Assembly: GCA_009839745.1 (NCBI GenBank) | Contig: VXPE01000117.1 | Coordinates: 6,059 to 70,058, forward strand | Direction of reading: 5' to 3' | DNA length: 64,000 nt | From: Candidatus Poribacteria bacterium | GTDB taxonomy: Bacteria > Poribacteria > WGA-4E > WGA-3G | In this document: positions 13,100-64,000 of the stretch, piece by piece | How positions within the stretch are numbered: position 1 is the stretch's first letter | Layout of the letters: each line of letters starts with the position of its first letter | Notes under the pieces: model-generated | Databases searched by the model: none | Seen by the model: only the letters and a program-made list of their open reading frames with translations | Told to the model about the DNA's origin: nothing | Program-made: the position numbers and the translations under genes

Positions 13100-13130
13100 A
13101 AACATCATAGAATCGACAGAAAACTGATAC

Positions 13131-13397: not shown

Positions 13398-13412
13398 TGG
13401 CACGGTTCTTGC
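13398..13412 (+). promoter_or_regulatory. Sigma-54 promoter (-24/-12)
   Basis: TGGCACGGTTCTTGC: exact TGGCAC-N5-TTGC with canonical GG-to-GC spacing, in a non-coding gap about 300 nt downstream of the bEBP gene. Confidence 0.75.
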
Positions 13413-13482
13413 TCAAGTATATCTTGTAGACACGTAGCAAACTCTCGCTCAACTGGCGTTCGATTTTTAAAAGGGGTACATA

Positions 13483-13750: not shown

Positions 13751-13995
13751 ATTAACGTGAGTTTGATAAAAGTGGGATGTCGGATTTCGCTACTGCTATT
13801 TCGTTAAAAAGTCGTTTGAAAAAGGGTGTATCTGCCCATATTTTGCGTTTTTTCGGTCGTTTTACCGCTCTACCTGGGGAAACACCCAAGCAAAAACACC
13901 TACAGATTTATTTTCAAACTCACGTTAGGTATGGAGGTATTGAGGACATGCGGTTTCTCGTACCTCCCTAACCTTTTTCAAGGAGAAATTTGAAC

Positions 13996-30000: not shown

Positions 30001-33000
30001 TGGATTCCAAAAATGAGATGATGGACCTGCACGCTGTATCTGACGGGTTCGCGCTCCCACCCTTTTCGGAGGTATTGGGACTCCCGCGTGGCATGCTACA
30101 AACCGGCACCCTCCGTTACGACTTGAAAGTGACCGGAACACCCACCCAACCCAACCTTCAGTTAGAATGGGCAACCCCGACGCTAACATTGGAAACAGAA
30201 GCAGGTGATATTGACATCACCGATGCAGGGGGTGCCATAACATATCAGGAGGAGACGCTGCGTTTTGAGGAATGTGCTTTCACAATCTTCGGTAACGACG
30301 GGCATTTAGAAGGATACGTTGATGTCCAACCCGAAGCGGTCGACAGTTCGGAGTTACACCTCCGCGTCGATACCATCGCTTTGGATCTCACTACTTTGCC
30401 GGTGGAGGCTATCAATAATTTCGGCTCTGGGAACGGGATAACTGGAATTTTAGAGGCATCTATAGAGATCGGTGGCACGCTCGCTGAGCCCCTTGTGCTA
30501 TTATACGCTGAAACAGCCGGACAGCATCCAATCCGCTTTGTTTCTTATATTCCTTCTATTACGCTGGAGCGACTTCGTGTAGACATTCGCCTCGATTCAG
30601 AATTCGTACGTGTTGAAAGAATAGAGGCGAACGGTCAGATAGGAGAGGGTCCCTACCATATCCAAGGGGAAGCCGTGTTCTCACGTCAGGATAGAGAGGC
30701 GATGCGATTCGATATTAATGTATCAGCGTCACAAGTAGAAATTGGGGACTATGGATTCACGTCAGGATATATTAATCTCAGCGGGACAGGCTTAGACCTA
30801 CAGCAGGTTACGGTTATTGGCGAAATAAACGAACTGGAACTTGACGGATATGATTTCCGTCTTATCAACAGGGCACCACTCCGATTTAGATCTGATCCAA
30901 GGGGAACGACTGAGGATACCGAGCCTCTCGTTGTGGAGATTCCGTTACAACTCACATCCCCTACGATGACCGCGGCAATGGCAGTCAACGTTGCAGGCAC
31001 CTTCACTTCCCCTGAAATCGCGATAGACTGGCAGGGGACGCTGAATCAAAAGGAGTGGACAGGCAAAATCCAGTATCAAGATGAACGCATAAACGTCACG
31101 GGTATAGAACTCAAAAATAGTGAAGGGGTGTTAACCCTTGCGGGTGTTATTCCGTTTAATCTGGCATTTGAAGCCATGGATATATCTGAACGGTTTATTG
31201 CTGCCCCCATTGACGTGCGCCTTCGCGGGAGTGAACTGCCTCTCAGTTTTTTTCCGGAGATTGATACCGCCTTTTCAGAGATGGACGGCACCGTTGACAT
31301 AGATTTAGGTATACAAGGCACAAGTCAATCTCCCTATGTGGTGGGTAACGTGTTTGTTGAAGCGTTGCAACTGCGTCTTAAAGACTTCCACGGGTTTCCA
31401 CTTCAGAATATGCAAATACACCTCAGCGCGCGGAAAGACTGGATTGATTTTACGGAGTTCCGATTTGACATAGGGGATGGCTCCTGTAGACTTGAACATG
31501 GACAGATAGCATTAGACAGCTTAACCCCAACATCATTGATACTACGAGGATTGAGATTAGAACGATTTCCCCTGGGTTCAACTGCCCGTCAATCCTTACC
31601 GCCATACCTTGTAGAAGAGGTGGAAGGGCATATAACAATGACCTTGCGGACCTTAACAGTCCCGTTCGATAGTTTCTTAGCGGCTGGAGAGGGGTTGCCT
31701 TTTGCGCAGGTCCGAGATGTTCCCTCACTCACCGATTTGGTCTCGGTTTCAAATGCCGATGTATCAATTAATAGCGTTCGCCTCGCTTTCAAGGCAATGG
31801 ATCGGCACTATGACTTTCAAAATCTCCAACCGACTCCGATAATTCTCAGTAATGGAACTTTGGTTCTAACGGAAACTTTCAGGTTTGAAAACCAAGCCGA
31901 ATTTTCAGTCAAACAGACTTTTACCGACGAGGATACAAAACCTGAAGGGTTACTCGGTAATGAACAGACCATTTCAGCGAAGACAATGCTAAGTATCGAT
32001 GCTGAAAGCAAGTGGTCGATGAACGGGGAGTTTGACGGCGCGCTTCGGCTCAAGAATTTTGATGTTTCAACGATAACTAACACGTGGCCTACGCAGTATC
32101 GGGTTACCGGGGCGTTGTCCGGAAGTCTACAGATGAGCGGGACGAGCGAGAATCCAAAGATAACCCTGCGACGGCACGAAAACGAACCTGCTGAGCTCTA
32201 TCTACACGACATCCCGATTGACCCTCGATGGAGAATCCGGTATCAGAACCGGAAATGGGAAATAACAGAGAAACGATACGTTGAAGTTACATTCGGGAAA
32301 AATCAGCTGACTTTCTCATGGACAATGCCCTACAAGTTTGAAATTATTCCATTTCTTACGGCATTGCAACAGTCTCCAGAAGAAGTTTGGATAGAGTTCC
32401 AGCAGGCCCCGATGCGTGGAACTTTGGATATAAAAGTAAACGACCTTACCATGCTGCCGTCTGTGGTCCCAGGGCTTAGCACTGCAACAGGCACTAGCGA
32501 AATTCACGTTGAACTGACAGGGACGATGGATGCCCCACAAGCCGACGGGAGTGTCCTTTTTAATGATATTGGATTTGAACTTCCGGAAGCTAATATTCAA
32601 GTTAAAGGGGTAGAAGGCGACATTAAGTTATCGGAAAAAGGCGTAAATATTAGGAGACTTGATGGCACCTTGAATGATGGAAGATTTTTGGTCACGGGCG
32701 GCGTCACAGCCCCATTAGATAGACATATATGGGAGACACCACCAACATTGAATGTGTCCACCGGTCTCACATCAACGGTTTTTGAACAAACCGGACAGTA
32801 CCGGATTGACCTCGCTTCCACCTCATTTCGTCTGCACGGGGAACTGCTTCGCCCGCGTCTAACAGGGGATATCCATATCAACGGCGGCTACTATCAACAA
32901 AATTGGGAAAATGTTCAGGATTGGCTCACAGGGGCATCGGTCAAGGAAACAGAACTTGTATTGGACTACCCTATTCTGCGTGATTTACATCTCGATGGGG

Positions 33001-33590
33001 TAGATATTAACATCCCTGATAATTTTCGTTTGCTTTCATCTTTCATAGGACCCACAGATATTGAAATCGCCTGCTTCGGTAAACTCTTCGGTTCACTGCG
33101 TCAACCCGTTTTCAGCGGGAACGTCTCGATGCTCAATGGAAAAATTGGGATTCCTCCCCAGACCTTTGAATTCATTGAAGGATCTGCAATCCGGAACCAG
33201 AGCACTGTCGATTTTAATCCTGACCTCAATATTTTTCTTCGCACACCGGACCGCGTTCGAGGCGTCTTACCGAGAGATGGAAGCACAATTGATCTTCAGG
33301 TGTATGCCTCCCTTACCGGCACTCTCAGCAATCCTAACTTTATTCTCAGTGCTCCCCCTGAAGCGACCACTGAAGTCCTCTCACATGATGAGATTATAGA
33401 TTTCCTCTTACGCAACGCTGCACTTTCAGGCGCGCTCGGTGGGTTCACATTTAGTTTCCATCGTCCGCTTGATGAAGATGCGCGATATATAAGTGCGGAG
33501 TATCCACTCGGAAAGAATGTATCCATTAAAATTGAAACCAATGAAAAAAGGGAACACGGGATTGACGTTGAATTCAAAGGACGGTTCTAA
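27075..33590 (+). CDS. tamB: Translocation and assembly module protein TamB-like (AsmA-like, DUF490 C-terminus), 2171 aa
   Basis: N-terminal signal-anchor helix, a very long beta-rich repetitive body, and a C-terminus ...YISAEYPLGKNVSIKIETNEKREHGIDVEFKGRF typical of TamB. Sits immediately upstream of an Omp85 gene. Confidence 0.8.
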   Translation: MSKHTLFTRKVKLKIFVGLFFIVGLCGAFFFIRSSTFLDWVEGRLETELKNRIDATYTANVGKIEGNILGSVSIRSVEISKENKPVISTGKVVLKYNLLGLLTRKFEVKELQVDKPEIHARRNPEGALNLSDILGDQTTQASPQSQDSPQFGFAVKYIKCENGTIDYIDTQRSWDLRIDGITIEVKGPLNTWQHEGTFEIKRGSFTVNGAETAIDKFNADFHILASGSTLDELRLEFGSSTLEVTGEFTYGETDPPWNSKVDLDLNLADIDPFFGEDIELEGDVDATLAVEGTGSALAGTLSVEIPTFSAVTAKKDIPKITLTAGHIDADFNAEPIPIFTLKQLSFQVADGTVVGDGSITSENALEGDLLKQFQQLLTHPMTYRGKWDATEIQLIPLLSMFVQLPENLADSTGRLSSSGEFSGNHTDPSSLELASKILLTETILDEVKLNDSTLKCTIGAGELKIDGNLDETGINVTGPFPVGRQDILEIQVSGIDVDDLMKIANSADIGGIGALSAQLSDGTLKGFMEIPNATFNDIPIGTLSGDFRYQEGRVFIENGLMTKNTIEGTSGVQTPPTKEFLSRTTITGTVEVEGEFPADISVVADPVYVQHYPKLLLGAEYPIEGEIRGELKLDGTLVNLDGTADFSVTEGVAWGIHLDPLVLPLEVEDYNLTIPDFKITTRGQQVTLNVAVASNADYDLLLENNSPVHLEEIAKAANLPDFPFEGQFDVRVVGKLKKPEDADFQVELDFSGVTFLHTERGTKYPLGDVHLLGKLVESSYQSSVNKDQLTEGLVKSDSASTENPNLPLDADTKQQSTSAASELITDAYFDFHGHGFEKTSRIQGYVSLALGNPYRFTAEGEKFDITPILPILHPTLEAVTGTADGNASISGTIADLVAPTANIASESQRQKIYPYDVDILVSTSQLRYETTVTRRIAFTNAEPIRLNLKDDTWTIETLSLRASENKVPFLELIGTLDSKNEMMDLHAVSDGFALPPFSEVLGLPRGMLQTGTLRYDLKVTGTPTQPNLQLEWATPTLTLETEAGDIDITDAGGAITYQEETLRFEECAFTIFGNDGHLEGYVDVQPEAVDSSELHLRVDTIALDLTTLPVEAINNFGSGNGITGILEASIEIGGTLAEPLVLLYAETAGQHPIRFVSYIPSITLERLRVDIRLDSEFVRVERIEANGQIGEGPYHIQGEAVFSRQDREAMRFDINVSASQVEIGDYGFTSGYINLSGTGLDLQQVTVIGEINELELDGYDFRLINRAPLRFRSDPRGTTEDTEPLVVEIPLQLTSPTMTAAMAVNVAGTFTSPEIAIDWQGTLNQKEWTGKIQYQDERINVTGIELKNSEGVLTLAGVIPFNLAFEAMDISERFIAAPIDVRLRGSELPLSFFPEIDTAFSEMDGTVDIDLGIQGTSQSPYVVGNVFVEALQLRLKDFHGFPLQNMQIHLSARKDWIDFTEFRFDIGDGSCRLEHGQIALDSLTPTSLILRGLRLERFPLGSTARQSLPPYLVEEVEGHITMTLRTLTVPFDSFLAAGEGLPFAQVRDVPSLTDLVSVSNADVSINSVRLAFKAMDRHYDFQNLQPTPIILSNGTLVLTETFRFENQAEFSVKQTFTDEDTKPEGLLGNEQTISAKTMLSIDAESKWSMNGEFDGALRLKNFDVSTITNTWPTQYRVTGALSGSLQMSGTSENPKITLRRHENEPAELYLHDIPIDPRWRIRYQNRKWEITEKRYVEVTFGKNQLTFSWTMPYKFEIIPFLTALQQSPEEVWIEFQQAPMRGTLDIKVNDLTMLPSVVPGLSTATGTSEIHVELTGTMDAPQADGSVLFNDIGFELPEANIQVKGVEGDIKLSEKGVNIRRLDGTLNDGRFLVTGGVTAPLDRHIWETPPTLNVSTGLTSTVFEQTGQYRIDLASTSFRLHGELLRPRLTGDIHINGGYYQQNWENVQDWLTGASVKETELVLDYPILRDLHLDGVDINIPDNFRLLSSFIGPTDIEIACFGKLFGSLRQPVFSGNVSMLNGKIGIPPQTFEFIEGSAIRNQSTVDFNPDLNIFLRTPDRVRGVLPRDGSTIDLQVYASLTGTLSNPNFILSAPPEATTEVLSHDEIIDFLLRNAALSGALGGFTFSFHRPLDEDARYISAEYPLGKNVSIKIETNEKREHGIDVEFKGRF

Positions 33591-36500
33591 GGGAAAAAAG
33601 TTTGCGAGTGTATCTAAAGTTGCGAAGTGCCTAAGGTTATTGACAACTTTACCGACCTTAGCACACTTTATAAACTTTGGCACACTTTACGCAGTTTGTC
33701 TTATTCTCTGGTTTCCTTGCTGCTTTTTCCTCCAGTCTGTAGGCGCACAGGAAAAAGCGATGGAAGAGCGGAACGGTGGAAGGATGGGCACCCAATCTTC
33801 CAGACTTCCAAGCTTCCAACCCAACGATTCCTCTCAGAAACCGATTGCGAAGATAGAATACTACATTGGCACAACCCCTGCAGAAGAAACCTCAGAATAC
33901 CCGAGTATACTTAGAAACCAGACAGTCGTATCAATTGGCGACACACTTTCTCGTCAGACGATTCAACAGAGCATTAAAGCACTCTATGCAACACAGCAGT
34001 ATTCCCAAATTCAGGTATACTCGCAGGACACTTCCGATGGTATTGTTTTAACCTACCAGCTGACACCTTTCGCGCGTATTGAACAAATTGTGCTCTCCGG
34101 CATCCCTGAAAACGAGATCAAAACCGCTATTGAGAATGAGATGCGATCAAGACGGGGAGGAAAGTATGTGCCCACAATTGTCAACACCGACATCCAGCGG
34201 ATCAAAGGCGTATGTGAAGCGTATGGCTATTTTGACGCAAAGGTCACAGTCTCCGATACGCTCACCGAAGCGGGGACGTTAACCTACCAGATAGCCGTGG
34301 GAGATGCCTCACAGATCAAAATATTGCAAATTCAAGACAATGTTGCTCTCTCAACGAACAGCCTTAAAGCCGTGTGTAACTTTAGTCGACTCCTCCCGAT
34401 TTACAACAAAACCGGTGTGGAGACGGATGTGGCATCTATGGTGGTACTTTACCGTAAAAACAACTATCCTACCGCTGAGATCGTCCCAAACTTTAATCAT
34501 GAGACGGGTGTGCTCCTATTTCAGGTCAATGAAGGGAGAGAGGTTCGGTTTAACTTCGTTATGGATGTTGGGGAGCTCCCTTTATCACTCCAGGAGACGT
34601 TCAGAGAAGATATAGTTTCTTTAATAAACACAGCCTCTCCTTCTATATGGGAGCACCGGATAAGATCCTATTTCAAAGCCAAAGGCTACCACGACACCAC
34701 CATTCATGAGGAAATACCGGATGCATCCAGGGTTCGACTTACGATTAATCCCGGGGTGCGTTATGTCGTTAAGGATGTCACTTTCTCTGGGAATAGGGCA
34801 TTTTCGGAGGCGCAACTGAAGCGAGAGATGACGATGAAACCGATAGGCGGATTTCTACGAAACTTGCAAGCAGACCTCGCAAGAGTGTTATTTCAGCACG
34901 AACAGAGACCCTTTTTTTATGAAGCAGAACTCGATACAGATATACATCGGCTCAACATTTTATATGGAAAAGCGGGGTATCCGAAGGCGGTTATCACGAC
35001 AACGCTCGATAAACAAAATCCAAACGACCGGAGTATTGGCGAAGTGGGGATACATGTCGCAATCACTGAAGAACACAAAGAGATGATTCACCGATGCGAC
35101 ATTAGCGGGAACAACGCGTTAGATACGGCTACGCTCCTGGCACGTTTGGCGCGTGAACTCCCGCTTCCGCAGCCAAATGCCTCACTTGCGCGGAAAGCCT
35201 ACGGCAACGCAATCTTGAAAGCCTATTATGAACGCGGATACATTGATGCAGTGGTAAGTAACTCGTATATATTAGAAACAAGTGATCCAGTTTTTCGAGT
35301 AACGGGCAATTTCTCGGAACCCCTTGAGAGAGGTAAACTTCCACAGGAAATCCGATCGGAATTCAAGAGACATGACCTTACACTTACAGGCGTTTACATA
35401 GCCACCTACATCGGCAACCGTTGGAGCCTCCAAGACATTGAGGGGAATCCACGGTATACGCTTAAACAGGAAGCGACACATCTTGCGGTATATGAACACG
35501 GGGTGCTACATCTCACCGTAGATACAGAAGGTGAGCAGGTCGTGTTTGGTAAATTCTATTTTCAAGGGGACACGGATGTTGTGAAACAACATGTGCTTCA
35601 ACGAGAAGTCGGCCACCTTGAGGGAACGCTTTGGACATCAAAAAAGTTAAGCAGTGTCTTGCAAAATCTATATGGCTTAGGACTTTTTCGCAGCGTCCAG
35701 TATGAACGCTTCTCACAGTCTACCCGTAGCACAGGGACACCGCAATCCTCGAAGGTTACGGATCCCTCTGACCCGCGTCTCCGGAAGATCAATGATGTTT
35801 TAATAACCGTCGAAGAACAGAAGCCACGGACCTACAGTATGAGCAGCGGTTACAGTTTCGCAGAGGGGTTTCGCGGAACGTTGGGGTTAACGGATAGCAA
35901 CTTTCTCTTTAAGCGGAACATTCGCGGACGGACACGCGCCAGACTGGGATGGCGAGACGAGTTGGGTTATCTTTTTGATGCGACGTTGACTGAACCGTGG
36001 TTGATTGGACGGACGCGGGGGAGTCTACAGATATTAGCCAAGAAGTTAGAAGTAGACGATAACGTCCGCGCCCTTCAGGGGAGTTTTATCCTCAGCAGAG
36101 ACGTGTCCGAGTCGCACCACCTGGATCTAAGATATAGTTACCGGGACTTGACCCAACCCGTTCCACCGGTGCGGGGCTCTCCAGCAGGTATCGGTGCCCA
36201 TATAGAGCAGAATCCTTTCAGCACAACCGTGAGCAGTATTCGATTCTCTTGGACCTACGACAACCGAGAGCGTTATTTGAATCCTACCGGTGGCATGTTG
36301 AACGATCTCACGCTTGAATACGCGGGCGGCAACTTCTTGCGGGGTGAAACCAGTTTTATTAAGACAACAACGGATACCCGATATTACCAAGAACTCATCG
36401 GCGGACTTGTCGTAGCCACCGCCGTCCGATTCGGTATTACGACCGAATTGCGATCAAACCGGCGTGCGGAACTGATCTCTTTTGAGCGGTTTTGGGCAGG

Positions 36501-36840
36501 TGGCGGGACAACGGTTCGCGGTTATGCTGAGCGTTCTCTCGGTCCCAAAGATAGCACGGGCATCCATCGCGGCGATGTGCAATTCATCTTTAACACGGAA
36601 CTCCGCTTCCCAATCTATCGGATCGTTCGCGGTGCCCTCTTTTTTGATGCTGGTAATGTTTGGGATGCCTTAGAGGATATCAATACGACGCAACCGCTCC
36701 CCTCCTCTGTCGGTGCTGGACTTTACTTGGATCTTGGTGCCCTCACAGCTGGTATCGATTACGCTGTCCCACTCGTGTCCACGCCGGGTGCTTTAGATCC
36801 AAACAGAGCCGTTCACCTTCGTGTGGGGAGTACGTTTTAA
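33541..36840 (+). CDS. Omp85-family outer membrane protein assembly factor (BamA/TamA-like)
   Basis: POTRA-like repeats and a C-terminal bacterial surface antigen barrel (RFWAGGGTTVRGY, ...HLRVGSTF ending in F). Start uncertain: the track gives 33493, ATG 33541 overlaps tamB by 50 nt, and TTG 33640 gives no overlap. Confidence 0.85.
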   Translation: MKKGNTGLTLNSKDGSKGKKFASVSKVAKCLRLLTTLPTLAHFINFGTLYAVCLILWFPCCFFLQSVGAQEKAMEERNGGRMGTQSSRLPSFQPNDSSQKPIAKIEYYIGTTPAEETSEYPSILRNQTVVSIGDTLSRQTIQQSIKALYATQQYSQIQVYSQDTSDGIVLTYQLTPFARIEQIVLSGIPENEIKTAIENEMRSRRGGKYVPTIVNTDIQRIKGVCEAYGYFDAKVTVSDTLTEAGTLTYQIAVGDASQIKILQIQDNVALSTNSLKAVCNFSRLLPIYNKTGVETDVASMVVLYRKNNYPTAEIVPNFNHETGVLLFQVNEGREVRFNFVMDVGELPLSLQETFREDIVSLINTASPSIWEHRIRSYFKAKGYHDTTIHEEIPDASRVRLTINPGVRYVVKDVTFSGNRAFSEAQLKREMTMKPIGGFLRNLQADLARVLFQHEQRPFFYEAELDTDIHRLNILYGKAGYPKAVITTTLDKQNPNDRSIGEVGIHVAITEEHKEMIHRCDISGNNALDTATLLARLARELPLPQPNASLARKAYGNAILKAYYERGYIDAVVSNSYILETSDPVFRVTGNFSEPLERGKLPQEIRSEFKRHDLTLTGVYIATYIGNRWSLQDIEGNPRYTLKQEATHLAVYEHGVLHLTVDTEGEQVVFGKFYFQGDTDVVKQHVLQREVGHLEGTLWTSKKLSSVLQNLYGLGLFRSVQYERFSQSTRSTGTPQSSKVTDPSDPRLRKINDVLITVEEQKPRTYSMSSGYSFAEGFRGTLGLTDSNFLFKRNIRGRTRARLGWRDELGYLFDATLTEPWLIGRTRGSLQILAKKLEVDDNVRALQGSFILSRDVSESHHLDLRYSYRDLTQPVPPVRGSPAGIGAHIEQNPFSTTVSSIRFSWTYDNRERYLNPTGGMLNDLTLEYAGGNFLRGETSFIKTTTDTRYYQELIGGLVVATAVRFGITTELRSNRRAELISFERFWAGGGTTVRGYAERSLGPKDSTGIHRGDVQFIFNTELRFPIYRIVRGALFFDAGNVWDALEDINTTQPLPSSVGAGLYLDLGALTAGIDYAVPLVSTPGALDPNRAVHLRVGSTF

Positions 36841-43324: not shown

Positions 43325-46051
43325 ATGACGCACACAATGGAAATTGACGGTGTTGAAGTTGCTTTTTCCGAGGGTGAAACCATCCTTGAAATAGCGCAAC
43401 GCTATCAGACAGAGATTCCAACGCTCTGCTATGACCCAAGGCTTGAGCCTTTCGGTGGGTGTCGCCTGTGTATCGTCGAATTAGAAGGTGCGCGAAATCC
43501 GGTGGCATCTTGCACGACGGAAGCGACACCGGGGATGGTCGTCCGAACAGCAACGGATACAATAGAGGCGTATCGGAAGACGCTGCTTGAAATGGTGATT
43601 AGCGAGAATCGCGAAGTCGATGTGTCTCCACTGCGCGGTTATGCGTCTGGCGAACTCACAGACCTTCGGGATAGATATGGACTTAACGACACCCGTATAA
43701 CAGGAGCGACATCTGGCACGAGCAAAACCGATGAAAACCCTTTCATTCTCAGGGATTACGAACTCTGCATTTCCTGCTATCGGTGCGTCCGCGTTTGTGC
43801 TGAACAGGAAGGCGATCACGCGATCAACGTTATGAATCGCGGTTTCCATACGCAGATTACGACTGAATTTGATGGAGCTCTCAAGGATTCTGCTTGCACT
43901 TTCTGTGGACAGTGTATTCAGACCTGTCCGACTGGAGCACTCGGCGACAAGAAGGCGCTACGGCATGCGGAGTCGGAATTACAAATCCCGTCTACTGAAC
44001 CCGATATTGAGAAAACACGCACAATCTGCCCCTACTGTGGGGTCGGCTGTTCTGTCGATATACTGACGAAAAACGAAAAAATCGTCGGTATCCATCCGGC
44101 AATGGACGGACCCGCCAATCAAGGTGCGCTCTGTGTTAAAGGGCAGTTCGCTTACGACTTTGTGCAGCATTCCGATCGACTGAAAGCCCCACTCATCCGC
44201 GGTGACGATGGAGAACTCCACGAAGCCACATGGGAAGAGGCACTTGACAGAGCAGCTGAGGGGTACCGGAAAGTCCACGCTGAACACGGTAGGTATAGCA
44301 TTTACGGGATTGCCTCTGGACGCGCACCGAGTGAAGCTGCGTATCTCATGCAGAAGTTTATCCGTGCTGGGTTCGGGACGAATTACATCGACAACTGTAG
44401 CCGTGCCTGACACGCCCCGACCGTTGCCGGTCTGGCAGCGACAATCGGACGTGGGGCGATGTCGAACCCGCTCGTTGATATGCAAAAGCCGGATGTAATT
44501 TTCTGCATCGGTACGAATATGACGGAGTGTCATCCCGTCGCGGCAACGGGGTTGAAAAAGGCTGTCGCCCGCGGTGCGAAACTCATCGTCGCGGATCCGA
44601 GACGTATCGGGTTAGCGGAGATGTCGGATCTCTATCTGCCGCTCCGTGTCGGTTCGGACACCGCACTACTTCTCGGAATGGCGCACGTGATTGCCCGTGA
44701 AGGCTTAATTGACGAAACGTTCGTCAAAAACCGAACCACAGGGTTTGATGACTTCTTTGAGCATATCAGCCAGTGGACACCGGAATGGGCGGAAGCGATC
44801 ACAGAGGTGCCAGCGAAGGATATTGAGACCGCAGCGCTGTGGTATGGCACAGCGAACAGGGGTGCCATCTACTATACGTTAGGGATTACGGAGCATATCT
44901 GTGGTGTTGAGAACGTGCAAAGTCTCTGTAATCTCGCTCTGATGACGGGCAATATCGGGCGTGAAGGAACGGGTATCAACCCGATGCGGGGTCAAAATAA
45001 CATTCAAGGCGCGGGAGACAGCGGTGCGTTGCCAAACAACTACCCCGGTTTCCAAGCCGTCACCGACCCAGAATATCAGGCGAAATTCAAATCGGCATAC
45101 GGCAGAGAGGTTGACTTGGAGAAAGGTATCACCAAAGTCACCGCCTTAGAACTCTGTGGCGATAGCATCCACGCGATGCTGATTGATGGCGAGAATACGT
45201 TGCTATCCGATCCCGATCGGGAACACTGTGAACACGCGCTCCGCTCATTGGAGCATCTCGTTGTCATTGACATCTTCCTCACTGAAACGGCGGAACTCGC
45301 CGATGTCGTGCTGCCAGCAACGGCATGGGGGGAAACGGACGGAATCTGCACAAATACGGAACGTCGCGTCCAACGCCTCCGCGCTGCAGTCCCGGCGCCC
45401 GGCGACGCGAAACCCGATTGGTGGATTATATCTCAAATTGCGCAACGTCTCGGCTTTAAGGGCTTCGATTATAACACGCCAGAACCGATTTTCAATGAAC
45501 TCTGCGAACTTTCACCGATTTATGCGGGATTGGATTGGGAACGTATCGACAAAGGTGCCACGGACACCTTCAACAACCAGTGGCCCGTGCCGCACAAAGC
45601 GCATCCCGGCACACCGAGATTACACGAAGAAACGTTCGTGAACGGACGCGGTATCTTTTCCAATGTGCACTACCGAGATCCCGCGGAGACGATTAGCGAT
45701 GATTTCCCGGTATGGCTCACAACAGGGAGACGCTTGCAATCCTATCACACGCGCACGCAGACCGGCAGATCCGAGGGAATTGACTACCTATTGCCAGAGG
45801 AATCCTTGGAGGTGAACCCGACTGACATCGAGGAATGGAACCTCACAGACGGGGAATGGTGTAAAATGAGCAGTGCCCGTGGAAGTATCACTATCAAAGT
45901 GAAATCGACAAACCGTTCTCCGCGCGGCACAGTTTTTGCGAGTTTCAGCTTCGCGGATGTCCCCGTCAACCTATTGACGGGTTCTGGTTACGACCCAATT
46001 ACGCACACCGCTGAATTGAAGGTGTGCCCTGTCCGGTTGGAGCCTCTTTAG
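43325..46051 (+). CDS. fdhA: Formate dehydrogenase alpha subunit, selenocysteine-containing (UGA 44408-44410), with N-terminal 2Fe-2S/4Fe-4S domains
   Basis: Track ORFs 43325..44410 and 44459..46051 are in the same frame, separated by a single TGA. The junction reads NYIDNCSRA-U-HAPTVAGLAATIGRGAMSNP, the conserved Mo-ligand Cys/Sec position of FdhF/FdhA. Cys clusters CYDPRLEPFGGCRLC, CISCYRCVRVC, CTFCGQCIQTCP and CPYCGVGC are present. Confidence 0.9.
44417..44448 (+). promoter_or_regulatory. Bacterial SECIS hairpin of fdhA
   Basis: cgttgcc-GGTCT-ggcagcg (7-bp stem including one G-U, 44422-44440) extended by ccga/tcgg. Starts 7 nt after the UGA. The sequence parallels E. coli fdhF (UGACACGGCCCAUCGGUUGCAGGUCUGCACCAAUCGG) as I recall it. 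Confidence 0.8.
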
Positions 46052-57203: not shown

Positions 57204-57944
57204 ATGATTAGACGGTTTATCTTTCTATACTTCTGTTGCGTGCTTGTGTCCTCAGCTTATGCCGCTGATACACCTAAAATCTTTACGAAAGATAATGTGC
57301 TTGCCGCAGGATGTTATAATGACGGGTTCAGCAGTAGTGATATGACGCTTATTATTCAACTCACTGTCGGAAAGGATGTTATATTTGATGAGGGCGTTGA
57401 GGTAAAATACCATGTTCCTGACAAAGATGTTGAGGGTTGGACTGAACTCGAATTTGACGATAAGAACTGGAAGAAAGGTATCACCAGCATTGGTTACGGT
57501 GATGGTGATGACAATACAGAAATTAAATCGGGTGAAGTTGGTTCACTGTACACGCGTTATCACTTTGATGTTCCTGAAGCTGCTACAGCGAAAAAAGTTA
57601 TGTTTCGGATTGACTATGACGATTCTTATATATTGTGGTTGAATGGGGTTGAAATTGGACGGACAGCCAATATTGCCACACTCTCTCCTGTAGGCGAAAT
57701 TCCTGAATGGGATGTGTCAAAAATTGTGGACTCGATGCCCGATGTTGAAGCGACGAAAGTCCCTAAGGGAAAGCCTAACAAGGATCGTTGGAAGAAACCT
57801 GTAACACCGAGAGAGCGGGACGTGCACGAAACAATTCATGAATTTGAGATTGATGTTAAATTTGGCGGGGGTTCAGGGTTATCAGTTGAAGCTGCAAACA
57901 AGTTAACGACGACATGGGCACAACTTAAAGGTCATTTATGGTGA
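57204..57944 (+). CDS. Secreted protein with a galactose-binding-like (CBM-type) beta-sandwich pattern
   Basis: Signal peptide MIRRFIFLYFCCVLVSSAYA-AD. W.ELEFDD.NW..G....GYGDGDD.T.....G....TRYHF.V.........F.IDYDDSYILWLNG.EIGR is a pattern I associate with carbohydrate-binding jelly-roll domains. Confidence 0.5.
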   Translation: MIRRFIFLYFCCVLVSSAYAADTPKIFTKDNVLAAGCYNDGFSSSDMTLIIQLTVGKDVIFDEGVEVKYHVPDKDVEGWTELEFDDKNWKKGITSIGYGDGDDNTEIKSGEVGSLYTRYHFDVPEAATAKKVMFRIDYDDSYILWLNGVEIGRTANIATLSPVGEIPEWDVSKIVDSMPDVEATKVPKGKPNKDRWKKPVTPRERDVHETIHEFEIDVKFGGGSGLSVEAANKLTTTWAQLKGHLW

Positions 57945-57979: not shown

Positions 57980-59602
57980 ATGGCAGAGGCATGGGAAAAA
58001 CTCCGAGGTAAAACCTATCCCGACACAGAGGCGGCGCAACTCGCTGTCCTTGAGACGGATGAGACGGTGCAGGACTACAAGAAACGTAGAGAGGTGTGGG
58101 CATCGGACCCGTACCGTCCCATCTATCATATCTCCTCTCTCTACGGCATGGGGGATGCGAACGGATTTTGCGAATGGCAAGGTAGGTATCACCTGTTTTA
58201 CCAATTCGGTCCCCCGGATGCCGATCGTGTGCACTGGGGGCACTGTTATAGCGAGGATTTGGTGCACTGGCAGGATCTCCCACCTGCGTTGTATCCGGAT
58301 ACCGAACTCCACTGCTATAGTGGTCAGTGCCTCGTGGAAGATGAACGGGTTATCGCTCTCTACCACGGCAAAATGTCGGGGAATAGCATCGCCACTGCGA
58401 GTGATCCGCTCCTGCTCAACTGGGAAAAGCACCCGAACAACCCGGTCATTCCGAACATTGAAACCAACGCATACGAGCAACCCTACAACGTCTTTGATCC
58501 GTGTATCTGGAAAGAGGAAGACGGGTATTATTCGATCTCAGGAACATCGGCGAACGGTTGGATTCGTGAACGGCGCAGATCCGCGTCCCACCTTTTTTAT
58601 TCAAAGGACTTGACGCACTGGGAATATCTCCATCCGTTGCTGATTGACGATGTTTTCTGCGACTTGGGTGAAGACGGTGCGGTGCCAAATTTCCTGCCTA
58701 TCGGAAATGATAAGCACATTCTGCTCCTCTTCAGCCATAAGCGTTCGGCGCGCTACTACATCGGTGAATACGATTACGGAACACATAGGTTTACCCCTGA
58801 ATACCACGGTAGAATCAACCACGGCACCTTCGGTGGTGGGATGGTCTCCTGTCCCTCTGCAACAATAGATTCCCGCGGTCGCCTCATCGCTATTTTAAAT
58901 TGCTCGGACGGAAGGCAGGGTGAAGAGGCCGCATCAGGATTGTGTATGACGCTCCCGTGGCACCTGACGCTGAAAGCGGACAACGCGTTGGCGATAGAAC
59001 CCGTAGAAGAGGTGAAAGGTCTACGGGGCACACACACTCGGCTCACCGATATTGGGCTATCGGCAAATGAAGAACGCGTCCTTGACGCTGTAGCCGGCAA
59101 AGCGATTGAGATAGACATGACCGTAGAGATCGGGACAGCACGGGAGTTCGGTTTGTATGTGTTCCGCTCCCCTGACGGGAGTGAACGGACAAAAATCTCT
59201 ATCTACAACCACAGACACGGCAAGACCAACGATAGTTTACAGATCGACACCTCCACTTCCTCCCTGCGGACGGATCTTGTCGGTAAACCGCCTGAAATTG
59301 CACCCTTCCGTCTGAGCGGGGACGGTAAGGTGCGTCTTCGCATCTTCCTCGACCGAAGTCTTATCGAAGTCTTTGCTGACAATGGAGAGTGTCTGCCGGA
59401 ATGGGCGTTTCCGAGAAAGGGTATCGACAAATTATTCCCACTGTTCTCACGGCAGTGTGCCGTTGCGCGCGTCTACCCACAGCAAGCAGAGAGCAACGGA
59501 CTCTCGCTTTTCGCGATCGGTGGGGACGCGAAGGTGGTTTCGATGGATGTGTGGCAAATGCGTGCTATCTGGCCGGAGTTAAAGTATCGGGAAGGGGAGT
59601 AA
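57980..59602 (+). CDS. Glycoside hydrolase family 32-like protein (divergent paralogue)
   Basis: RPIYHISSLYGMGDANGFCEWQGRYHLFYQ and WGHCYSEDLVHW. NDPNG is replaced by GDANG (Asp kept), and the WECP position reads GAVP. Confidence 0.75.
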   Translation: MAEAWEKLRGKTYPDTEAAQLAVLETDETVQDYKKRREVWASDPYRPIYHISSLYGMGDANGFCEWQGRYHLFYQFGPPDADRVHWGHCYSEDLVHWQDLPPALYPDTELHCYSGQCLVEDERVIALYHGKMSGNSIATASDPLLLNWEKHPNNPVIPNIETNAYEQPYNVFDPCIWKEEDGYYSISGTSANGWIRERRRSASHLFYSKDLTHWEYLHPLLIDDVFCDLGEDGAVPNFLPIGNDKHILLLFSHKRSARYYIGEYDYGTHRFTPEYHGRINHGTFGGGMVSCPSATIDSRGRLIAILNCSDGRQGEEAASGLCMTLPWHLTLKADNALAIEPVEEVKGLRGTHTRLTDIGLSANEERVLDAVAGKAIEIDMTVEIGTAREFGLYVFRSPDGSERTKISIYNHRHGKTNDSLQIDTSTSSLRTDLVGKPPEIAPFRLSGDGKVRLRIFLDRSLIEVFADNGECLPEWAFPRKGIDKLFPLFSRQCAVARVYPQQAESNGLSLFAIGGDAKVVSMDVWQMRAIWPELKYREGE

Positions 59603-59612
59603 GATACAAATT

Positions 59613-62600
59613 ATGGCAACAGACTATAAAAAAATAAAACCAATCATAAATCTGCGTAGTACCCGTGAGCAACGTGGCGACAAAACGCACTTCGTCTATG
59701 AACTCGCTCAAAATGCTGATGACAGTAAAAGTAAACGGCTTGAATTGCATCTGTGTGAGAAAGAGTTACTTGTTTGGAACGATGGATGCAAGTTCCGTGA
59801 AGAGGATGTACTCAGGATTAGTTCAGTCGGTTTTAGTGATAAGGATCTGACACAAATTGGCAATTTTGGCACTGGCTTCAAGGCGGTTTACAACTACACG
59901 GATCGCCCAGAAGTCTATTCTGGTGATGAACGTTTTTGCTTACCAGATCCTACGAGTATTTCTAAAACTTTCGAAGATTTCGCTTCTTCACCTTTGGTAG
60001 AAGGCGTTGATAGGGTCCCTCCAAGAATTGCAGAGTTGGTAGAAGAAGGTAGAACAGTCTTTCGTCTACCTTTCAAGGAGAACCTGCGTCAAGAAGACCT
60101 GACGCTCTTGAAAGATCAACTTCGTGAGTTATTGAAAAAGCGACCTTTGCTCTTTCTACCTCATCTTGAAACGATTCAATGGCATGATGTATGCAGCGGA
60201 CAGGCAGGAACCTATTGCCGCTGTCAATATGGAAAGATACAAGGTGCTGACCAAGTTGAGTTAAAAGCATCAATGAATGGCGAGGTTCAAAAATCTGAGA
60301 GATTCCTCATTTTTTCCAAGAAATTTCAACCTCCACCAGATGTCATTGATGAACTTTTGCAAATAGAATATGATCCAGAACGACGGAAACGCATTCAAGA
60401 AACTGCGGATAAACTTCAACCTATTGAAGTCGCCTTCAAACTACAAGATGGTAAAATTATAGCAATGGATAATTGTGTATTATTTGCCTACCTTTCGACT
60501 GAAAAGGAAACTCATCTGCGATTTTTCATTCAGGCACGCTATCAAACGAATCCTGCTCGTAACGATATTGAAAAAACGGAGCAGAATCCATGGAACAGAT
60601 GGCTGGTGAAAGAAACAGCAGGATTTCTTCCTGAAATTTTGGAACAGTTGAAGGCAAGCGATTTACTTGAACCAGCGTTCTTTAACGTAGTACCTTTGAA
60701 CGAAGATAATGTGCCAAGTGAATTTTTACCTATTGCTGAGGCACTCCAAAAAGCGATGCAGGAAAGAGCGTTTGTACCGACACAAAGCGGAGGATATGCC
60801 AAAGCTGAAAGTGTGTTTCATGTTAACAGTAAAGGTGTTACCATCCCGCGCGGCATAGAGTATAGATACGCAAAAGCTCAGAACGTGTACTACCCCGATG
60901 ACGAAATCCTGCGACAATTGATTGAAAATAATTGGTTGCATTCTGAGAGTGATTGGTTACACCCTGAGATCCAAGATACAGAAGAGTTTCGCCGGTGTTT
61001 CAAAGTTATGCAAGAGGCAGGCGTAAAATCAGTAGATATCAGTCGGATTTTGGGACGGTTAGAAGAACAAGGTTCTGATTGGTGGAAGGAGCAACCCAAC
61101 AAATGGCTGCATTTCTTGTATACCTATTTGAAAGATCAAGGAACCCAATTGGATCGAATAAAGAAACTGCCATTGATTCGACTTGAAAATGGGCGACATG
61201 TGCGTGCCAGCGAGGCATTCTTTCCGCCAGAAACAGATGAAGAATATGAAGAAATTGCTCCTTTCCTTGATGAGTTGCCCATCCTTCAGTCAACCCTGCT
61301 TCAAGGAGAAAAAGGGCATGACATCAAATCTTTCCTCGAGAAGCTCGGCGTTAGGGGTTTAGATCCTCAAGAGATGATTGGCAAATGGATTCTCCCGCAA
61401 TATTCTCGGTGTGACAAACCCTCTAAAGAACAAAATCGCTTGCATGTCCGTTATATTTTCAAGGTTTGGGACAAACTTGACAAATATGAGCATAGGCAGT
61501 TGAAGGCAGAACTCTGCGGGACTCCAATCTTAAGAGCTTATAACAACGGTCAACCAGAAACCTATGATTTTGTAAAACCTTACGATGCGTATCTACCGGA
61601 AGCCTACACAGGTGATACTCACTTGGAAACCTATTTTTCAGTCTCCGATAATGATGTATGGTTTGTAGATAGTGGATATCTGGATGGCAACTCTAATGCA
61701 AAAGAATGGATCCAATTTTTGAAAGCGATTGGTGCTATGGATACGCCGCCGGTTGTGGAAAAGAAAATTCTTGCCAATGATGAAAACCAACAAGAATTTA
61801 CCAAAAAACTTGAGGAGAGAGGAGTTAAGAGACGACATTGTACCCAAGAATATATTAAAGACTTTTACTTCCATGGCCTGCCGGAAATATTGGCCAAGAT
61901 AAGTAATCACAGCGAAGTAAACTTGTCGCGGGGGATCTGGTATCTGTTGATTAAAGCAGTAAAATCAAGATCGTCAAGCGAATCGGCGCGCGATGCGTTC
62001 TTTCAAGGTGACTATTATCACTTTTATTACAGTTGGAAACAACCGATTCCTTTTGATGCAAGATTCTACCGTCAACTCAAGGAAACTGGTTGGCTGCCTG
62101 ACGAACACGGTAAACTGCATAAGCCTTCTGAACTGTTTGCTCCAACTGATGAGAATCGTAGGGTATTAGGTGATAATATGCGTTACTTACACCCGGATTT
62201 CGATGTTAGCACACAAACTGCCCAATGGTTGGCTAAGAAATTGAAAATCGCTCTGGAGCCAAAGATAGAAAATGTAATGAACAGCCTCCGAACCTTGAGC
62301 AATACAAAAGTGAGCATGGAAGAGGTTGAACCACTTTATCGTTTTCTTAATCAACAGGGATACCGCTTATTTACCTCTACCACTGATGGAGGAGGGACTG
62401 AAGAATTCAAACAAAAACCCCTTATCTTTACGCCTAATCCAGAGTCGCGCTGGTGGCGAACAGATGAGGTGTTTTGGGAGGATAAGAGCGAGGTCCTTGA
62501 AAGTGATCATCGTTGTCTTAAAGCACATTACCCAGCAACCCTCAAATCTTTTTTCAAAAATACTCTCCGAGTTTCGGAGCAAGCATCTCAACGAGATTAC

Positions 62601-64000
62601 GCTCATCGCATTCAAGAGATTGCAGAAAATCCAGAGCAAGCTGCGGACAAGAAGGTGCGTGAACGCCTTCGAAGGCTTTACAAGTTTCTAACTTCCGAGT
62701 GGCAAAAAGACGAATGGAAGAAAATAATATATGACGATAAATGCTGGCTCGGCAAAAGGGGAAAGGAGTGGGGGTTTTTCACCCGACAAGAGTTAGTTTT
62801 GAAAGATCATCCCCATATTGGTGAGATTTTTGAAGGCGAGGTACCTTTTTGGACATTTGACGATGATTTGTCGAGTCTTGCTTCGACTCTGAAGATAGAA
62901 GGGTGCTCTCAGGCACAACTCAAATCCCACCCGGAGGGAGATCCAGAAGAAGACCCAGATTGGTCAGAGAGGGTGCGAAACCTACATCCTTATATTTATG
63001 CCTTCCTCAAGTCCCCGCGCCTTTCTGAAGAACCTGAAAAAGAAAAACTTGCGGGGGTTTTGGAGCAAGTGTCAGTTTGCCGCGTTAAGGAAGTAAAAGG
63101 GACATATAACTTGAAAGGGATTCCTGTTACTGATTCGGATCCGCGTCTGAGTTTTTTGGATGAACAGGAAGCGAAACTCTGGTTAGGATTAGAGGCACAC
63201 AAAGATGAATATGCTGAGCTTATTGGCGATGCTTTGCAGGATTACTTTGGTATCAAAGTACTGGGTAAATTTGTTGAGGATTTGCTGACACCGACAAAAA
63301 AACGAGACAGGGTTCTCTCTAATTGGAAAAGAAGAGGTCTTGATACCAAATTTCTCAATGAAGATCCTAAAGATAATGAGGAAAAACAGATAGAGGCTCT
63401 TGATGAGAAACGCCCTGATGTGCCTAACAGTGAAGACGTTGATCCTGCAGTTGATGAATCCAATATGAGAATTCCAACGGACAATGAGGATCATTATACC
63501 GTAGCAGCGGGAGTAGATGATTCTGGAGACCATTTCTCTAACGATGGAAGCACGGATGCTACAGCAGATGGATATGAGGTCGAAACGCCGATGGATAGCG
63601 AAGAACCTGAAATAGGTAAAGTAGATAGCAATTCAACCTTAGAGGACTCTGAAACCCTTGTAGATTTGCCATCTGATATGGAAACTCTGACTACAACCAG
63701 AATCTCTACTACCCAAACAACTGACGATGGATCTGAACATGAAATACCAGAGATCAACGAGAATCCTAAAATAGGCAGCGGAGATCCTAATTCAACAACA
63801 AAGGGATCTGGGACCGGAACGTATAATCCATTCCGGACGAGCAGGACAAGTCGATCCGGTGGGCATTCACTGAATACATCCAACAATAGAGAAAGTAGTG
63901 GCGGTGGTCACGGCGGTAGCGGTGGCGGTGGTGAAGGTCAAGAGCATGAGAATTTAAAGAAAGACTTAGCAAATAATCCCTCCCAATTGGGTGAAGGATT
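59613..64000 (+). CDS. Large sacsin-like GHKL (HATPase_c-type) ATPase protein, partial (open at the 3' window end, at least 1462 codons)
   Basis: Not in the supplied track because no stop is reached. I translated 59613-64000 codon by codon and found no stop. The N-terminus THFVYELAQNADDS (Bergerat N-box ExxxNAxD) and IGNFGTGFKAVYNYTDRPEVYSG match the sacsin/Hsp90-like ATP-binding module. 63350-63900 is an acidic/Ser-Thr-rich linker, then a Gly-rich tract, then EHENLKKDLANNPSQLGEG. Confidence 0.75.
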   Translation, partial: MATDYKKIKPIINLRSTREQRGDKTHFVYELAQNADDSKSKRLELHLCEKELLVWNDGCKFREEDVLRISSVGFSDKDLTQIGNFGTGFKAVYNYTDRPEVYSGDERFCLPDPTSISKTFEDFASSPLVEGVDRVPPRIAELVEEGRTVFRLPFKENLRQEDLTLLKDQLRELLKKRPLLFLPHLETIQWHDVCSGQAGTYCRCQYGKIQGADQVELKASMNGEVQKSERFLIFSKKFQPPPDVIDELLQIEYDPERRKRIQETADKLQPIEVAFKLQDGKIIAMDNCVLFAYLSTEKETHLRFFIQARYQTNPARNDIEKTEQNPWNRWLVKETAGFLPEILEQLKASDLLEPAFFNVVPLNEDNVPSEFLPIAEALQKAMQERAFVPTQSGGYAKAESVFHVNSKGVTIPRGIEYRYAKAQNVYYPDDEILRQLIENNWLHSESDWLHPEIQDTEEFRRCFKVMQEAGVKSVDISRILGRLEEQGSDWWKEQPNKWLHFLYTYLKDQGTQLDRIKKLPLIRLENGRHVRASEAFFPPETDEEYEEIAPFLDELPILQSTLLQGEKGHDIKSFLEKLGVRGLDPQEMIGKWILPQYSRCDKPSKEQNRLHVRYIFKVWDKLDKYEHRQLKAELCGTPILRAYNNGQPETYDFVKPYDAYLPEAYTGDTHLETYFSVSDNDVWFVDSGYLDGNSNAKEWIQFLKAIGAMDTPPVVEKKILANDENQQEFTKKLEERGVKRRHCTQEYIKDFYFHGLPEILAKISNHSEVNLSRGIWYLLIKAVKSRSSSESARDAFFQGDYYHFYYSWKQPIPFDARFYRQLKETGWLPDEHGKLHKPSELFAPTDENRRVLGDNMRYLHPDFDVSTQTAQWLAKKLKIALEPKIENVMNSLRTLSNTKVSMEEVEPLYRFLNQQGYRLFTSTTDGGGTEEFKQKPLIFTPNPESRWWRTDEVFWEDKSEVLESDHRCLKAHYPATLKSFFKNTLRVSEQASQRDYAHRIQEIAENPEQAADKKVRERLRRLYKFLTSEWQKDEWKKIIYDDKCWLGKRGKEWGFFTRQELVLKDHPHIGEIFEGEVPFWTFDDDLSSLASTLKIEGCSQAQLKSHPEGDPEEDPDWSERVRNLHPYIYAFLKSPRLSEEPEKEKLAGVLEQVSVCRVKEVKGTYNLKGIPVTDSDPRLSFLDEQEAKLWLGLEAHKDEYAELIGDALQDYFGIKVLGKFVEDLLTPTKKRDRVLSNWKRRGLDTKFLNEDPKDNEEKQIEALDEKRPDVPNSEDVDPAVDESNMRIPTDNEDHYTVAAGVDDSGDHFSNDGSTDATADGYEVETPMDSEEPEIGKVDSNSTLEDSETLVDLPSDMETLTTTRISTTQTTDDGSEHEIPEINENPKIGSGDPNSTTKGSGTGTYNPFRTSRTSRSGGHSLNTSNNRESSGGGHGGSGGGGEGQEHENLKKDLANNPSQLGEG

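Follow-up and report, generated by a model that had tools for sequence, protein, structure and literature searches.

A probable Tiamat-family (TmtA-like) ATPase-nuclease gene in a fixed, recombining slot of Candidatus Poribacteria chromosomes

Introduction

In the literature, Tiamat is a single-gene PD-(D/E)XK system located in defence hotspots, and its hidden Markov models (HMMs) are reported to match plant genomes. It was reportedly named by Millman et al. in 2022 in Cell Host & Microbe; in the 2022 bioRxiv text of Millman et al., Tiamat is not mentioned by name and the domain terms do not occur. The C-terminal nuclease of the Tiamat protein, TmtA, was reportedly assigned to DUF3883/NOV_C in the original description. 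No mechanism for Tiamat or TmtA was found in the literature searched, which yielded surveys and reviews only. Here, a 64,000-nucleotide stretch of Candidatus Poribacteria DNA (contig VXPE01000117.1; hereafter the window) was analysed with respect to the gene at its right end, which lies on the + strand from 59613 to the edge at 64000. This gene very probably belongs to the Tiamat family. Furthermore, we consider it likely that it encodes a single-protein anti-phage ATPase-nuclease of the TmtA type which sits in a fixed chromosomal slot and recombines.

Several proteins share parts with this gene product. NucS is a small (~ 250 aa) dimeric repair enzyme with an N-terminal DNA-binding domain, and the GHKL domains of MutL, MORC, Hsp90 and topoisomerase II dimerise upon ATP binding. 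The plant protein NO VEIN joins a sacsin-like ATPase to NOV_C, which is also the layout of the NOV_C-type sister alleles of the window gene. Sacsin itself is built from repeated SRRs together with ubiquitin-like, DnaJ and HEPN domains (PMC3710099). An earlier note on this DNA, made by a model from the letters and their listed open reading frames (ORFs), had already proposed a sacsin-like GHKL ATPase gene with a C-terminal effector, in such proteins often of nuclease or DUF3883 type, and had suggested an accessory or horizontally acquired conflict-system gene.

Open reading frame and family assignment

From the ATG at 59613 the + strand was translated over 1462 sense codons with zero stops, that is to 63998 of 64000, where the gene is cut by the window edge. 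Given the base composition of the segment, a stop-free run of this length would arise by chance with a probability of ~ 1e-42. The frame begins 10 nt after the TAA (59600-59602) of the preceding GH32 gene (GH32b, 57980-59602), and its start, MATDYKKI, is the consensus start of the homologues too. A purine-rich, Shine-Dalgarno-like GGGGAG (59594..59599, + strand) lies within the end of GH32b, 13 nt before the ATG. The earlier note had described the same frame and the same gap, and had seen only short ORFs listed over the region; indeed, all those in 59.6-64 kb are ≤ 130 aa, because the mechanical ORF list leaves out ORFs running off the window. The closest relative is that of locus L001, a syntenic 177-kb metagenomic scaffold on which the gene (10001-14737) occupies one frame ending at codon 1579. 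Through the linker and as far as the edge the two align with 99% identity, and L001 supplies the ~ 97 residues missing from the window, from which a full-length product of ~ 1559 aa is predicted.

In order to assign the protein to a family, it was searched with PADLOC, whose Tiamat (TmtA) models are PDLC03964-03972. The best match was TmtA PDLC03972 (E=1.2e-114), and eight of the nine profiles gave long and very strong matches, the ninth being marginal. PDLC03968 aligned to residues 18-1191 over profile positions 69-1197 of 1486, and PDLC03966 to residues 11-1225; for the intact relative P0002 a TmtA profile reached E=1.9e-123 with positions 39-1292 of 1302 covered. Judged by sequence similarity the family is large: of the 1.84 billion cluster representatives searched, 4121 are related at E ≤ 1e-3, and 514 still are at E ≤ 1e-30. 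Across ~ 35 related loci both direct neighbours vary, upstream in the presence of a ~ 100-aa ORF and downstream between a HindVP-type endonuclease with a methyltransferase, the methyltransferase alone, and NUDIX. No obligatory conserved partner emerges, in keeping with a single-gene system; the window stops short of the downstream gene.

The window gene thus resembles Tiamat in being one large protein whose ATPase and ~ 1200-residue body match the TmtA profiles, in the order of its parts (an N-terminal GHKL/sacsin-like ATPase and a C-terminal PD-(D/E)XK nuclease, the latter judged from orthologues) and in its defence island or hotspot setting. It differs in three respects. The tail is a NucS_C/DUF91-like cassette instead of DUF3883/NOV_C, the acidic Ser/Thr/Gly linker before it is unusually long (~ 195 aa), and the host is a member of the Poribacteria in which the gene stands at a fixed locus in most loci fetched and recombines. 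Since the nuclease cassette differs from the usual one, we file the gene as an effector-swapped variant and not as a plain member. The kind of system is itself already known, and a PADLOC run by a specialist would routinely detect this gene. In public databases, proteins of ~ 1500 aa such as P0001, P0085 and similar ones are called 'DUF91 domain-containing protein', 'endonuclease NucS' or 'DUF3883 domain-containing protein'. These names are given after the ~ 100-residue tail alone; they therefore hide the Tiamat-like nature of the proteins and are misleading.

ATPase domain and protein body

Residues ~ 20-240 (59670..60332; + strand, as are all features of this gene) form a GHKL (Bergerat-fold) ATPase domain of the sacsin SR1 type, as found with Pfam, NCBIfam and Foldseek. 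The Pfam family SACS matches residues 24-115 with 54.9 bits (cutoff 32.8), and this is its sole match in the protein; the NCBIfam model of the sacsin N-terminal ATP-binding domain, P_loop_sacsin (NF047352), matches with E=4e-22 and 78.4 bits (cutoff 50). In a sequence search of the PDB, the sacsin SR1 crystals 5v44-5v47 were the only solved relatives. Motif I, ExxxNxxD, is FVYELAQNADDS (residues 27-38, 59691-59726), followed by an NDG motif (59772-59795) and by the G2 box GxFGxGF in IGNFGTGFKAVYNYTD (residues 82-97, 59856-59903). Among 56 homologues, E30, N34, D37, D57, G58, G83, F85, G86, G88 and F89 are each conserved in at least 90%. The nucleotide-binding motifs are hence intact, and from their conservation we infer that the protein may bind and hydrolyse ATP and dimerise.

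An AlphaFold model of residues 1-1200, made with the 56 homologues in the alignment, reaches a mean pLDDT of 66.6, with good confidence at residues ~ 30-640 and 710-900 and poor confidence at 917-1110, where pLDDT is < 50 at 917-977 and 1025-1105. Searched with Foldseek against the PDB, its first ~ 230 residues match the Hsp90-like domain of sacsin SR1 (E=2e-6, ~ 228 columns), so that sacsin is the nearest match of the N-terminal domain in both sequence and fold. Longer alignments were obtained with MutL N40 (1b62, 1bkn; 332-359 columns), with topoisomerase II ATPase domains (363-376) and with TRAP1 (701), and on these a transducer-like second domain is tentatively placed at residues ~ 241-400 (60333..60812). 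The remaining ~ 800 residues beyond the GHKL region found no match when the 1200-residue model was searched against the PDB and a viral structure library. They comprise a conserved mixed alpha/beta body (residues ~ 401-714, 60813..61754; model good to ~ 640, no Pfam match), a hypervariable core (residues 715-818, 61755..62066) and, up to the linker, a conserved C-terminal body (residues 819-1248, 62067..63356) which PDLC03968 and PDLC03966 cover. Pfam searches restricted to residues 690-840 and 901-1296 returned nothing usable. The ~ 1200 residues after the motifs, described in the earlier note as helical-looking, are mixed alpha/beta domains in the model.

The hypervariable core is the least conserved stretch of the 56-sequence alignment, yet it is modelled with pLDDT 75-83. 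It is thus predicted to be folded, and we propose it as a specificity or sensor module. In the model, residues 745-815 run through a strand, three helices and a beta-hairpin, an order of secondary structures that resembles a winged helix.

Comparison with sacsin and with the GHKL DNA machines shows how far each likeness extends. The window protein has one ATPase module and a single SACS match, compared to the three SRRs of sacsin, and it is bacterial, hypervariable and nuclease-tipped. Moreover, DnaJ, HEPN and ubiquitin-like domains are absent from it in Pfam searches (none for DnaJ or HEPN at E ≤ 1). The protein is therefore sacsin-like only in its first domain. With MutL, MORC, Hsp90/TRAP1 and topoisomerase II/GyrB it shares the Bergerat fold, ExxxNxxD, a Gly-rich lid and, probably, a transducer-like second domain. 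However, it is only 9-12% identical to them in sequence, has, like sacsin, a DxGxG box cut down to NDG, and in its remaining parts has no equivalent in these families.

Linker and nuclease tail

The body is followed by an acidic, Ser/Thr/Gly-rich low-complexity linker, recognised by its composition, at residues 1249-1443 (~ 195 residues, 63357..63941). Over residues 1291-1443 the fractions are 0.20 for D+E, 0.05 for K+R, 0.27 for S+T, 0.15 for G and 0.14 for hydrophobic residues (0.32 in the rest of the protein). Its identity is 99% to L001 and 37-45% to other alleles. It ends in the Gly run GGGHGGSGGGGEG (residues 1430-1442, 63900-63938), and in a tandem-repeat scan the GGCGGT Gly codons were the only repeat above shuffled controls. 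The linker is probably a flexible tether for the nuclease and possibly an autoinhibitor.

The last visible segment, EHENLKKDLANNPSQLGEG (residues 1444-1462, 63942..64000), corresponds in the tail alignment to the first helix of a PD-(D/E)XK nuclease of NucS_C/DUF91 type. Indeed, it aligns to the conserved start of the NucS_C-type tails and not to that of the NOV_C-type tails. We infer from this and from L001 that the missing ~ 97 residues form a NucS/EndoMS-type PD-(D/E)XK nuclease and not DUF3883/NOV_C. In 75 distinct homologous tails the pattern is EGxxHxxLK..NPSxxG..EY.F.SGDRVDIL..VTVEV[K/E]..WQAVKY, the catalytic stretch reading VEVE in 39 of them and VEVK in 27. These tails and that of L001 keep D...E-x-(K/E)...Q-x-x-x-Y in alignment with the NucS catalytic residues.

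The relation to NucS was seen by several methods. Pfam NucS_C matches the tails of P0001 and P0004 with 27.5 and 29.6 bits (cutoff 24), and a profile of 23 tails matches Pyrococcus NucS (2vld) with E=0.009, the catalytic D, E-x-K and Q...Y positions being aligned. A model of the orthologue tail (pLDDT 92.3) matches NucS/EndoMS (2vld, 5gke) in Foldseek with E=5e-8 and TM 0.73, followed by Card1, Can2, BstEII, Cdn1, Cap4 and the Avs4 nuclease; Card1, Can2, Cap4 and the Avs4 nuclease are related PD-(D/E)XK effector nucleases. However, in the subtype of the window the catalytic Lys of NucS is replaced by Glu, and the nuclease is fused to a 1440-residue regulator. Pfam scans, run on the window protein and on full-length relatives, found no N-terminal DNA-binding domain of NucS, and the window protein is therefore not NucS.

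At the same locus, other alleles end in NOV_C/DUF3883, a wholly different cassette with GYD...IEVKA. The TmtA profiles cover the NOV_C tail of P0002, whereas not one of them reaches over the NucS_C tail of P0001. Such a swap of DUF3883 for a NucS-type nuclease, at one and the same position, speaks for a plug-in effector at the C-terminus and for the ATPase body as the sensor or regulator.

Most of what the earlier note had said about the protein was borne out. Its four quoted motifs, FVYELAQNADDS, IGNFGTGFKAVYNYTD, GGGHGGSGGGGEG and EHENLKKDLANNPSQLGEG, were recovered where it had placed them, and its acidic linker from ~ 63350 starts at 63357. The sacsin-like GHKL N-terminus is seen in Pfam SACS, in P_loop_sacsin and in the fold matches to sacsin SR1, MutL and Hsp90/TRAP1. 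As for the nuclease-type or DUF3883-type effector, the edge segment is the start of a PD-(D/E)XK domain and the sister alleles carry DUF3883/NOV_C.

Chromosomal slot and defence neighbours

The best homologues and all syntenic loci come from metagenome-assembled genomes and closed chromosomes of Candidatus Poribacteria, which are sponge symbionts. A scan of species-representative genomes gave 36 loci, at least 29 of them in Poribacteria; distant copies are found in Latescibacteria, Acidobacteriota, Anaerolineae, Verrucomicrobia and Armatimonas. The 64-kb window itself holds no paralogue of the gene.

Most of the fetched Poribacteria loci have the gene in one and the same chromosomal slot, after GH32 genes. 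The upstream order is DAHP synthase, PRK, HSP20, MIP, GH32a, (246-aa ORF, GH32b), and then TmtA. Directly downstream there is variably a HindVP-type restriction endonuclease with a C5 methyltransferase, the methyltransferase alone, or neither; in relatives PADLOC identifies both as components of type II restriction-modification (R-M), with E=3.5e-118 for the endonuclease and E=5e-146 for the methyltransferase. Further downstream, most Poribacteria loci carry a ~ 296-aa ORF, a NUDIX gene, an AAA_21/AAA_15 ATPase and a 152-aa ORF. PADLOC matches the latter two over their full length to the candidate system PDC-M56A/B (E=1.4e-145 and 1.5e-46). Past the window end, the NUDIX, ATPase and 152-aa genes correspond to L004 18148-20485, with equivalents in L001-L006. 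The ~ 296-aa ORF, which travels with the NUDIX and PDC-M56 genes, shows a weak similarity, below threshold, to Zn-metallopeptidases.

In relatives, with a type II R-M pair and PDC-M56 beside it, the gene lies in a defence island, which together with the family assignment agrees with the earlier proposal of a conflict-system gene. Given that the slot is the same across Poribacteria species, we regard it as a long-resident chromosomal defence island which predates species divergence and not as a recent insertion. The idea of horizontal acquisition therefore holds in part: the gene is a long-term resident of its slot, and it is segments of it that move horizontally by recombination. The gene is more AT-rich than its neighbours, as had been noticed, with GC 0.429 and GC3 0.375, ~ 2 standard deviations under the window genes (means 0.495 ± 0.037 and 0.508 ± 0.065; 0.52-0.535 for the two GH32 genes). 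However, CorA, the sigma-54 activator, MscS and the 246-aa ORF of the window are similarly low in GC, which weakens AT-richness as a sign of foreign origin.

The cassette type goes along with the neighbouring genes. In nine of ten loci with NOV_C-type alleles, HindVP and the methyltransferase follow (L004, L006, L007, L009-L011, L018, L021 and L039), while HindVP never directly follows a NucS_C-type allele. Six NucS_C-type loci have the methyltransferase with no endonuclease (L001, L005, L008, L024, L028 and L037). We read this association as linkage of adjacent segments in recombination blocks and not as functional coupling; it points to a joint exchange of the TmtA 3' end and the endonuclease as one block, which left orphan methyltransferases behind.

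Some further differences between the islands were observed. Many relatives have an ORF of 94-105 aa with no family match between GH32b and TmtA (e.g. L002 9684-9968); it is absent from the window (59603-59612), L001 and L011, where TmtA begins 10 nt after GH32b. In L014 (1-9394), a complete NucS_C-type TmtA is preceded by a NOV_C tail fragment, HindVP, the methyltransferase and the 296-aa ORF, suggesting that this genome has two tandem TmtA genes of different cassette types. The 296-aa ORF is upstream in several other loci too, and the island has therefore been rearranged between genomes.

Divergence and mosaicism of the alleles

In six syntenic loci the proteins of the neighbouring genes are mostly 87-99% identical in amino acids to those of the window (HSP20 76-79% in two), whereas for the TmtA segments identity is 55-79%, the closest locus excepted. 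Compared with that locus, L001, the gene is a patchwork. Nucleotide identity is 100% over 60074-60973, 62705-63004 and 63599-63898, 55-81% over 61274-62110, and ~ 89-92% in the flanks. Codons 171-500 and 1291-1462 have a synonymous divergence (dS) of 0, compared with 0.35 for codons 501-714, 1.75 for codons 715-818 and 0.38-0.41 for the adjacent GH32 genes. Residues 715-818 are 42% identical to this otherwise near-identical orthologue. For 61148-61755 the nearest allele is that of L006 (92.8% nucleotide identity), whose first 500 residues are 55% identical in amino acids, and the window allele thus joins L001-like and L006-like blocks. Within the hypervariable core, none of 42 related loci has a nucleotide-level counterpart to 61756-62062, and the dS of the core is 1.5-2.2 against every allele.

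The ratio of nonsynonymous to synonymous divergence (dN/dS) ranges from 0.12 to 0.59 along TmtA, compared to 0.03-0.10 in the neighbour genes. Positive selection was rejected as the explanation since dN/dS exceeds 1 in no segment; the signal is one of recombination together with relaxed or diversifying constraint. A diversity-generating retroelement or an internal template behind the core was also rejected, because the longest repeat of any part of 61101-62500 in the window is a chance match of 16 nt and because the core differs by indels and saturated dS. Some copies are broken. The L001 gene has a single in-frame stop at codon 935 (FLE-stop-QKYR where the window has FLNQQGYR) and is called as genes of 934 and 607 aa, which reflects either a recent pseudogene or a sequencing error, and split copies occur in ~ 7 of the 42 loci (including L029, L030, L034, L036 and L037).

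Taken together, the divergence, the mosaicism and the dN/dS values are, at the level of sequence comparison, the signature of an immune gene diversifying by recombination among old allele classes. Going one step further, and tentatively, Poribacteria Tiamat may be a quasi-core immune gene at a fixed locus whose alleles are recombined from ancient modules and in which the core is the determinant of specificity or triggering. The modules would be the ATPase classes, the ~ 100-residue core (715-818) and the two alternative nuclease cassettes. Such a recombination of modules would resemble the shuffling of target-recognition domains in type I R-M systems.

Proposed mechanism and alternatives

The mechanism that we put forward combines an ATP clamp, a sensor and a tethered nuclease; it is drawn by analogy and is held as a possibility that we stop short of calling probable. 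Upon ATP binding, the N-terminal GHKL domains would dimerise or close, as they do in MutL, MORC, Hsp90 and topoisomerase II, a step modelled on the Bergerat fold and lid shared with the GHKL DNA machines. The hypervariable core would recognise a feature of the invader, most likely DNA, and the ATP-dependent switch would free or position the tethered PD-(D/E)XK nuclease, with the result that invading DNA is cut; the acidic linker may keep the nuclease inactive. New specificities would arise by recombination among old allele classes, including the exchange of whole nuclease cassettes (NucS_C or DUF3883/NOV_C). As target, we prefer invader DNA specifically over all DNA in an abortive response.

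Several points weigh against this picture of a recombining defence ATPase-nuclease. The anti-phage function of the Poribacteria alleles is deduced from family, parts, context and evolution, that is from sequence, and with no Tiamat mechanism in the literature searched the mechanism is built by analogy at each step. The nuclease has its catalytic part beyond the window; this is taken from L001, whose own copy carries the in-frame stop at codon 935. In VEVE, a Glu stands in place of the canonical Lys of E-x-K, so that a BamHI-like D/E/E site or a relocated Lys would be required for activity. The transducer domain relies on alignments of high rmsd. As regards the evolutionary argument, dN/dS is above 1 in no TmtA segment, and chimeric metagenome assembly could inflate part of the mosaic pattern. 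Finally, counts of promoters and terminators between GH32b and the gene are not above shuffled controls, so that co-transcription with the fructan genes is likely, and this is unusual for a defence gene.

The alternative that survives best, although we consider it unlikely, is abortive infection, in which the variable body would sense a phage protein or the state of infection and the nuclease would degrade all DNA, that of the host included, and so kill the cell. Such a role would suit the nearest structures of the tail after NucS, which are the abortive or signalling effector nucleases Card1, Can2, Cdn1, Cap4 and Avs4, and a long tether with possible autoinhibition would befit a dangerous non-specific nuclease. 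Furthermore, Hsp90/sacsin-type GHKL modules are protein-handling machines in eukaryotes, and as no cognate methyltransferase is consistently linked, discrimination of self from non-self by modification is not evident. However, the GHKL relatives MutL, MORC and topoisomerase II act on DNA, and the order of secondary structures in the modelled core hints at a DNA-binding winged helix. At the sequence level, abortive infection and direct DNA targeting are not separated.

Far less probable is that the window copy is a decaying, non-functional remnant. Broken relatives such as L001, L029, L030, L034, L036 and L037 would fit decay, and the last ~ 97 codons of the window copy lie outside the window. 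However, all 1462 visible codons are open, all the near-invariant family residues checked are present and dN/dS is well under 1.

Rather more doubtful still is that TmtA is the restriction part of an R-M-like pair with the downstream C5 cytosine methyltransferase. The idea comes from L001 and L005, where the methyltransferase begins 10 nt past the TmtA stop with no HindVP endonuclease, and from the same 'orphan' arrangement in all six NucS_C-type loci listed above. However, there is no methyltransferase at the NucS_C loci L002, L015, L017, L020, L023, L025-L027 and L034, and Tiamat is treated as a single-gene system. The methyltransferase is, moreover, 86-94% identical to the one paired with HindVP in the NOV_C-type loci and is best read as a type II remnant. 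As a partner of TmtA it was thus rejected, many loci having none and the loci with HindVP pairing it with that endonuclease.

Finally, a housekeeping role, either as a repair enzyme (a MutL-like ATPase fused to a NucS/EndoMS-like nuclease for non-canonical mismatch repair) or as a sacsin-like chaperone, is hardly credible: the two ends have their nearest solved structures in MutL N-terminal domains and NucS/EndoMS and the gene stands at the same locus in most Poribacteria loci fetched, but repair genes are conserved whereas TmtA is mosaic, far more diverged than its neighbours, interchangeable in its nuclease with DUF3883/NOV_C, broken in ~ 7 of 42 loci, placed among defence genes and matched by TmtA defence profiles, and Pfam scans find neither the NucS N-terminal DNA-binding domain nor the DnaJ, HEPN and repeated SRRs of a sacsin-like chaperone.

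Other genes of the window

Three other features of the window were observed. The ORFs 43325-44410 and 44459-46051 (+ strand; span 43325-46051) share one frame, split by a TGA at 44408-44410. The context of this codon, NCSRA-TGA-HAPTVAGL, is the canonical selenocysteine site of formate dehydrogenase alpha, and the span is probably one selenocysteine-containing molybdopterin formate dehydrogenase gene split by ORF calling. A hairpin directly after the UGA has -24.1 kcal/mol, marginally better than shuffles (z=-1.7). Among the genes of the window the highest AT content belongs to the 246-aa ORF between the two GH32 genes (57204-57944, + strand; GC 0.424, GC3 0.372). Its N-terminus resembles a signal peptide, neither Pfam nor PADLOC matched it, and its conservation in relatives is 90-97%. 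Lastly, the two largest complete ORFs of the window (27075-36840, + strand), a TamB/AsmA/DUF748-like one of 2172 aa and an Omp85/POTRA one of 1116 aa, look like an ordinary outer-membrane biogenesis pair.

Significance

Tiamat is among the defence systems named in 2022, and the locus shows no new kind of system. It adds the swapped cassette, the hypervariable core and an allelic series at a fixed locus, a natural one that spans at least 29 Poribacteria species in one chromosomal slot. Within this series the recombination breakpoints isolate a folded hypervariable core of ~ 100 residues, which is a prime candidate for the specificity determinant. In addition, a conserved defence island made of Tiamat, type II R-M and PDC-M56 is documented in an uncultivated phylum of sponge symbionts. 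If the reading of alleles recombined from old modules is true, the natural chimeras would pinpoint where the trigger of Tiamat should be sought.

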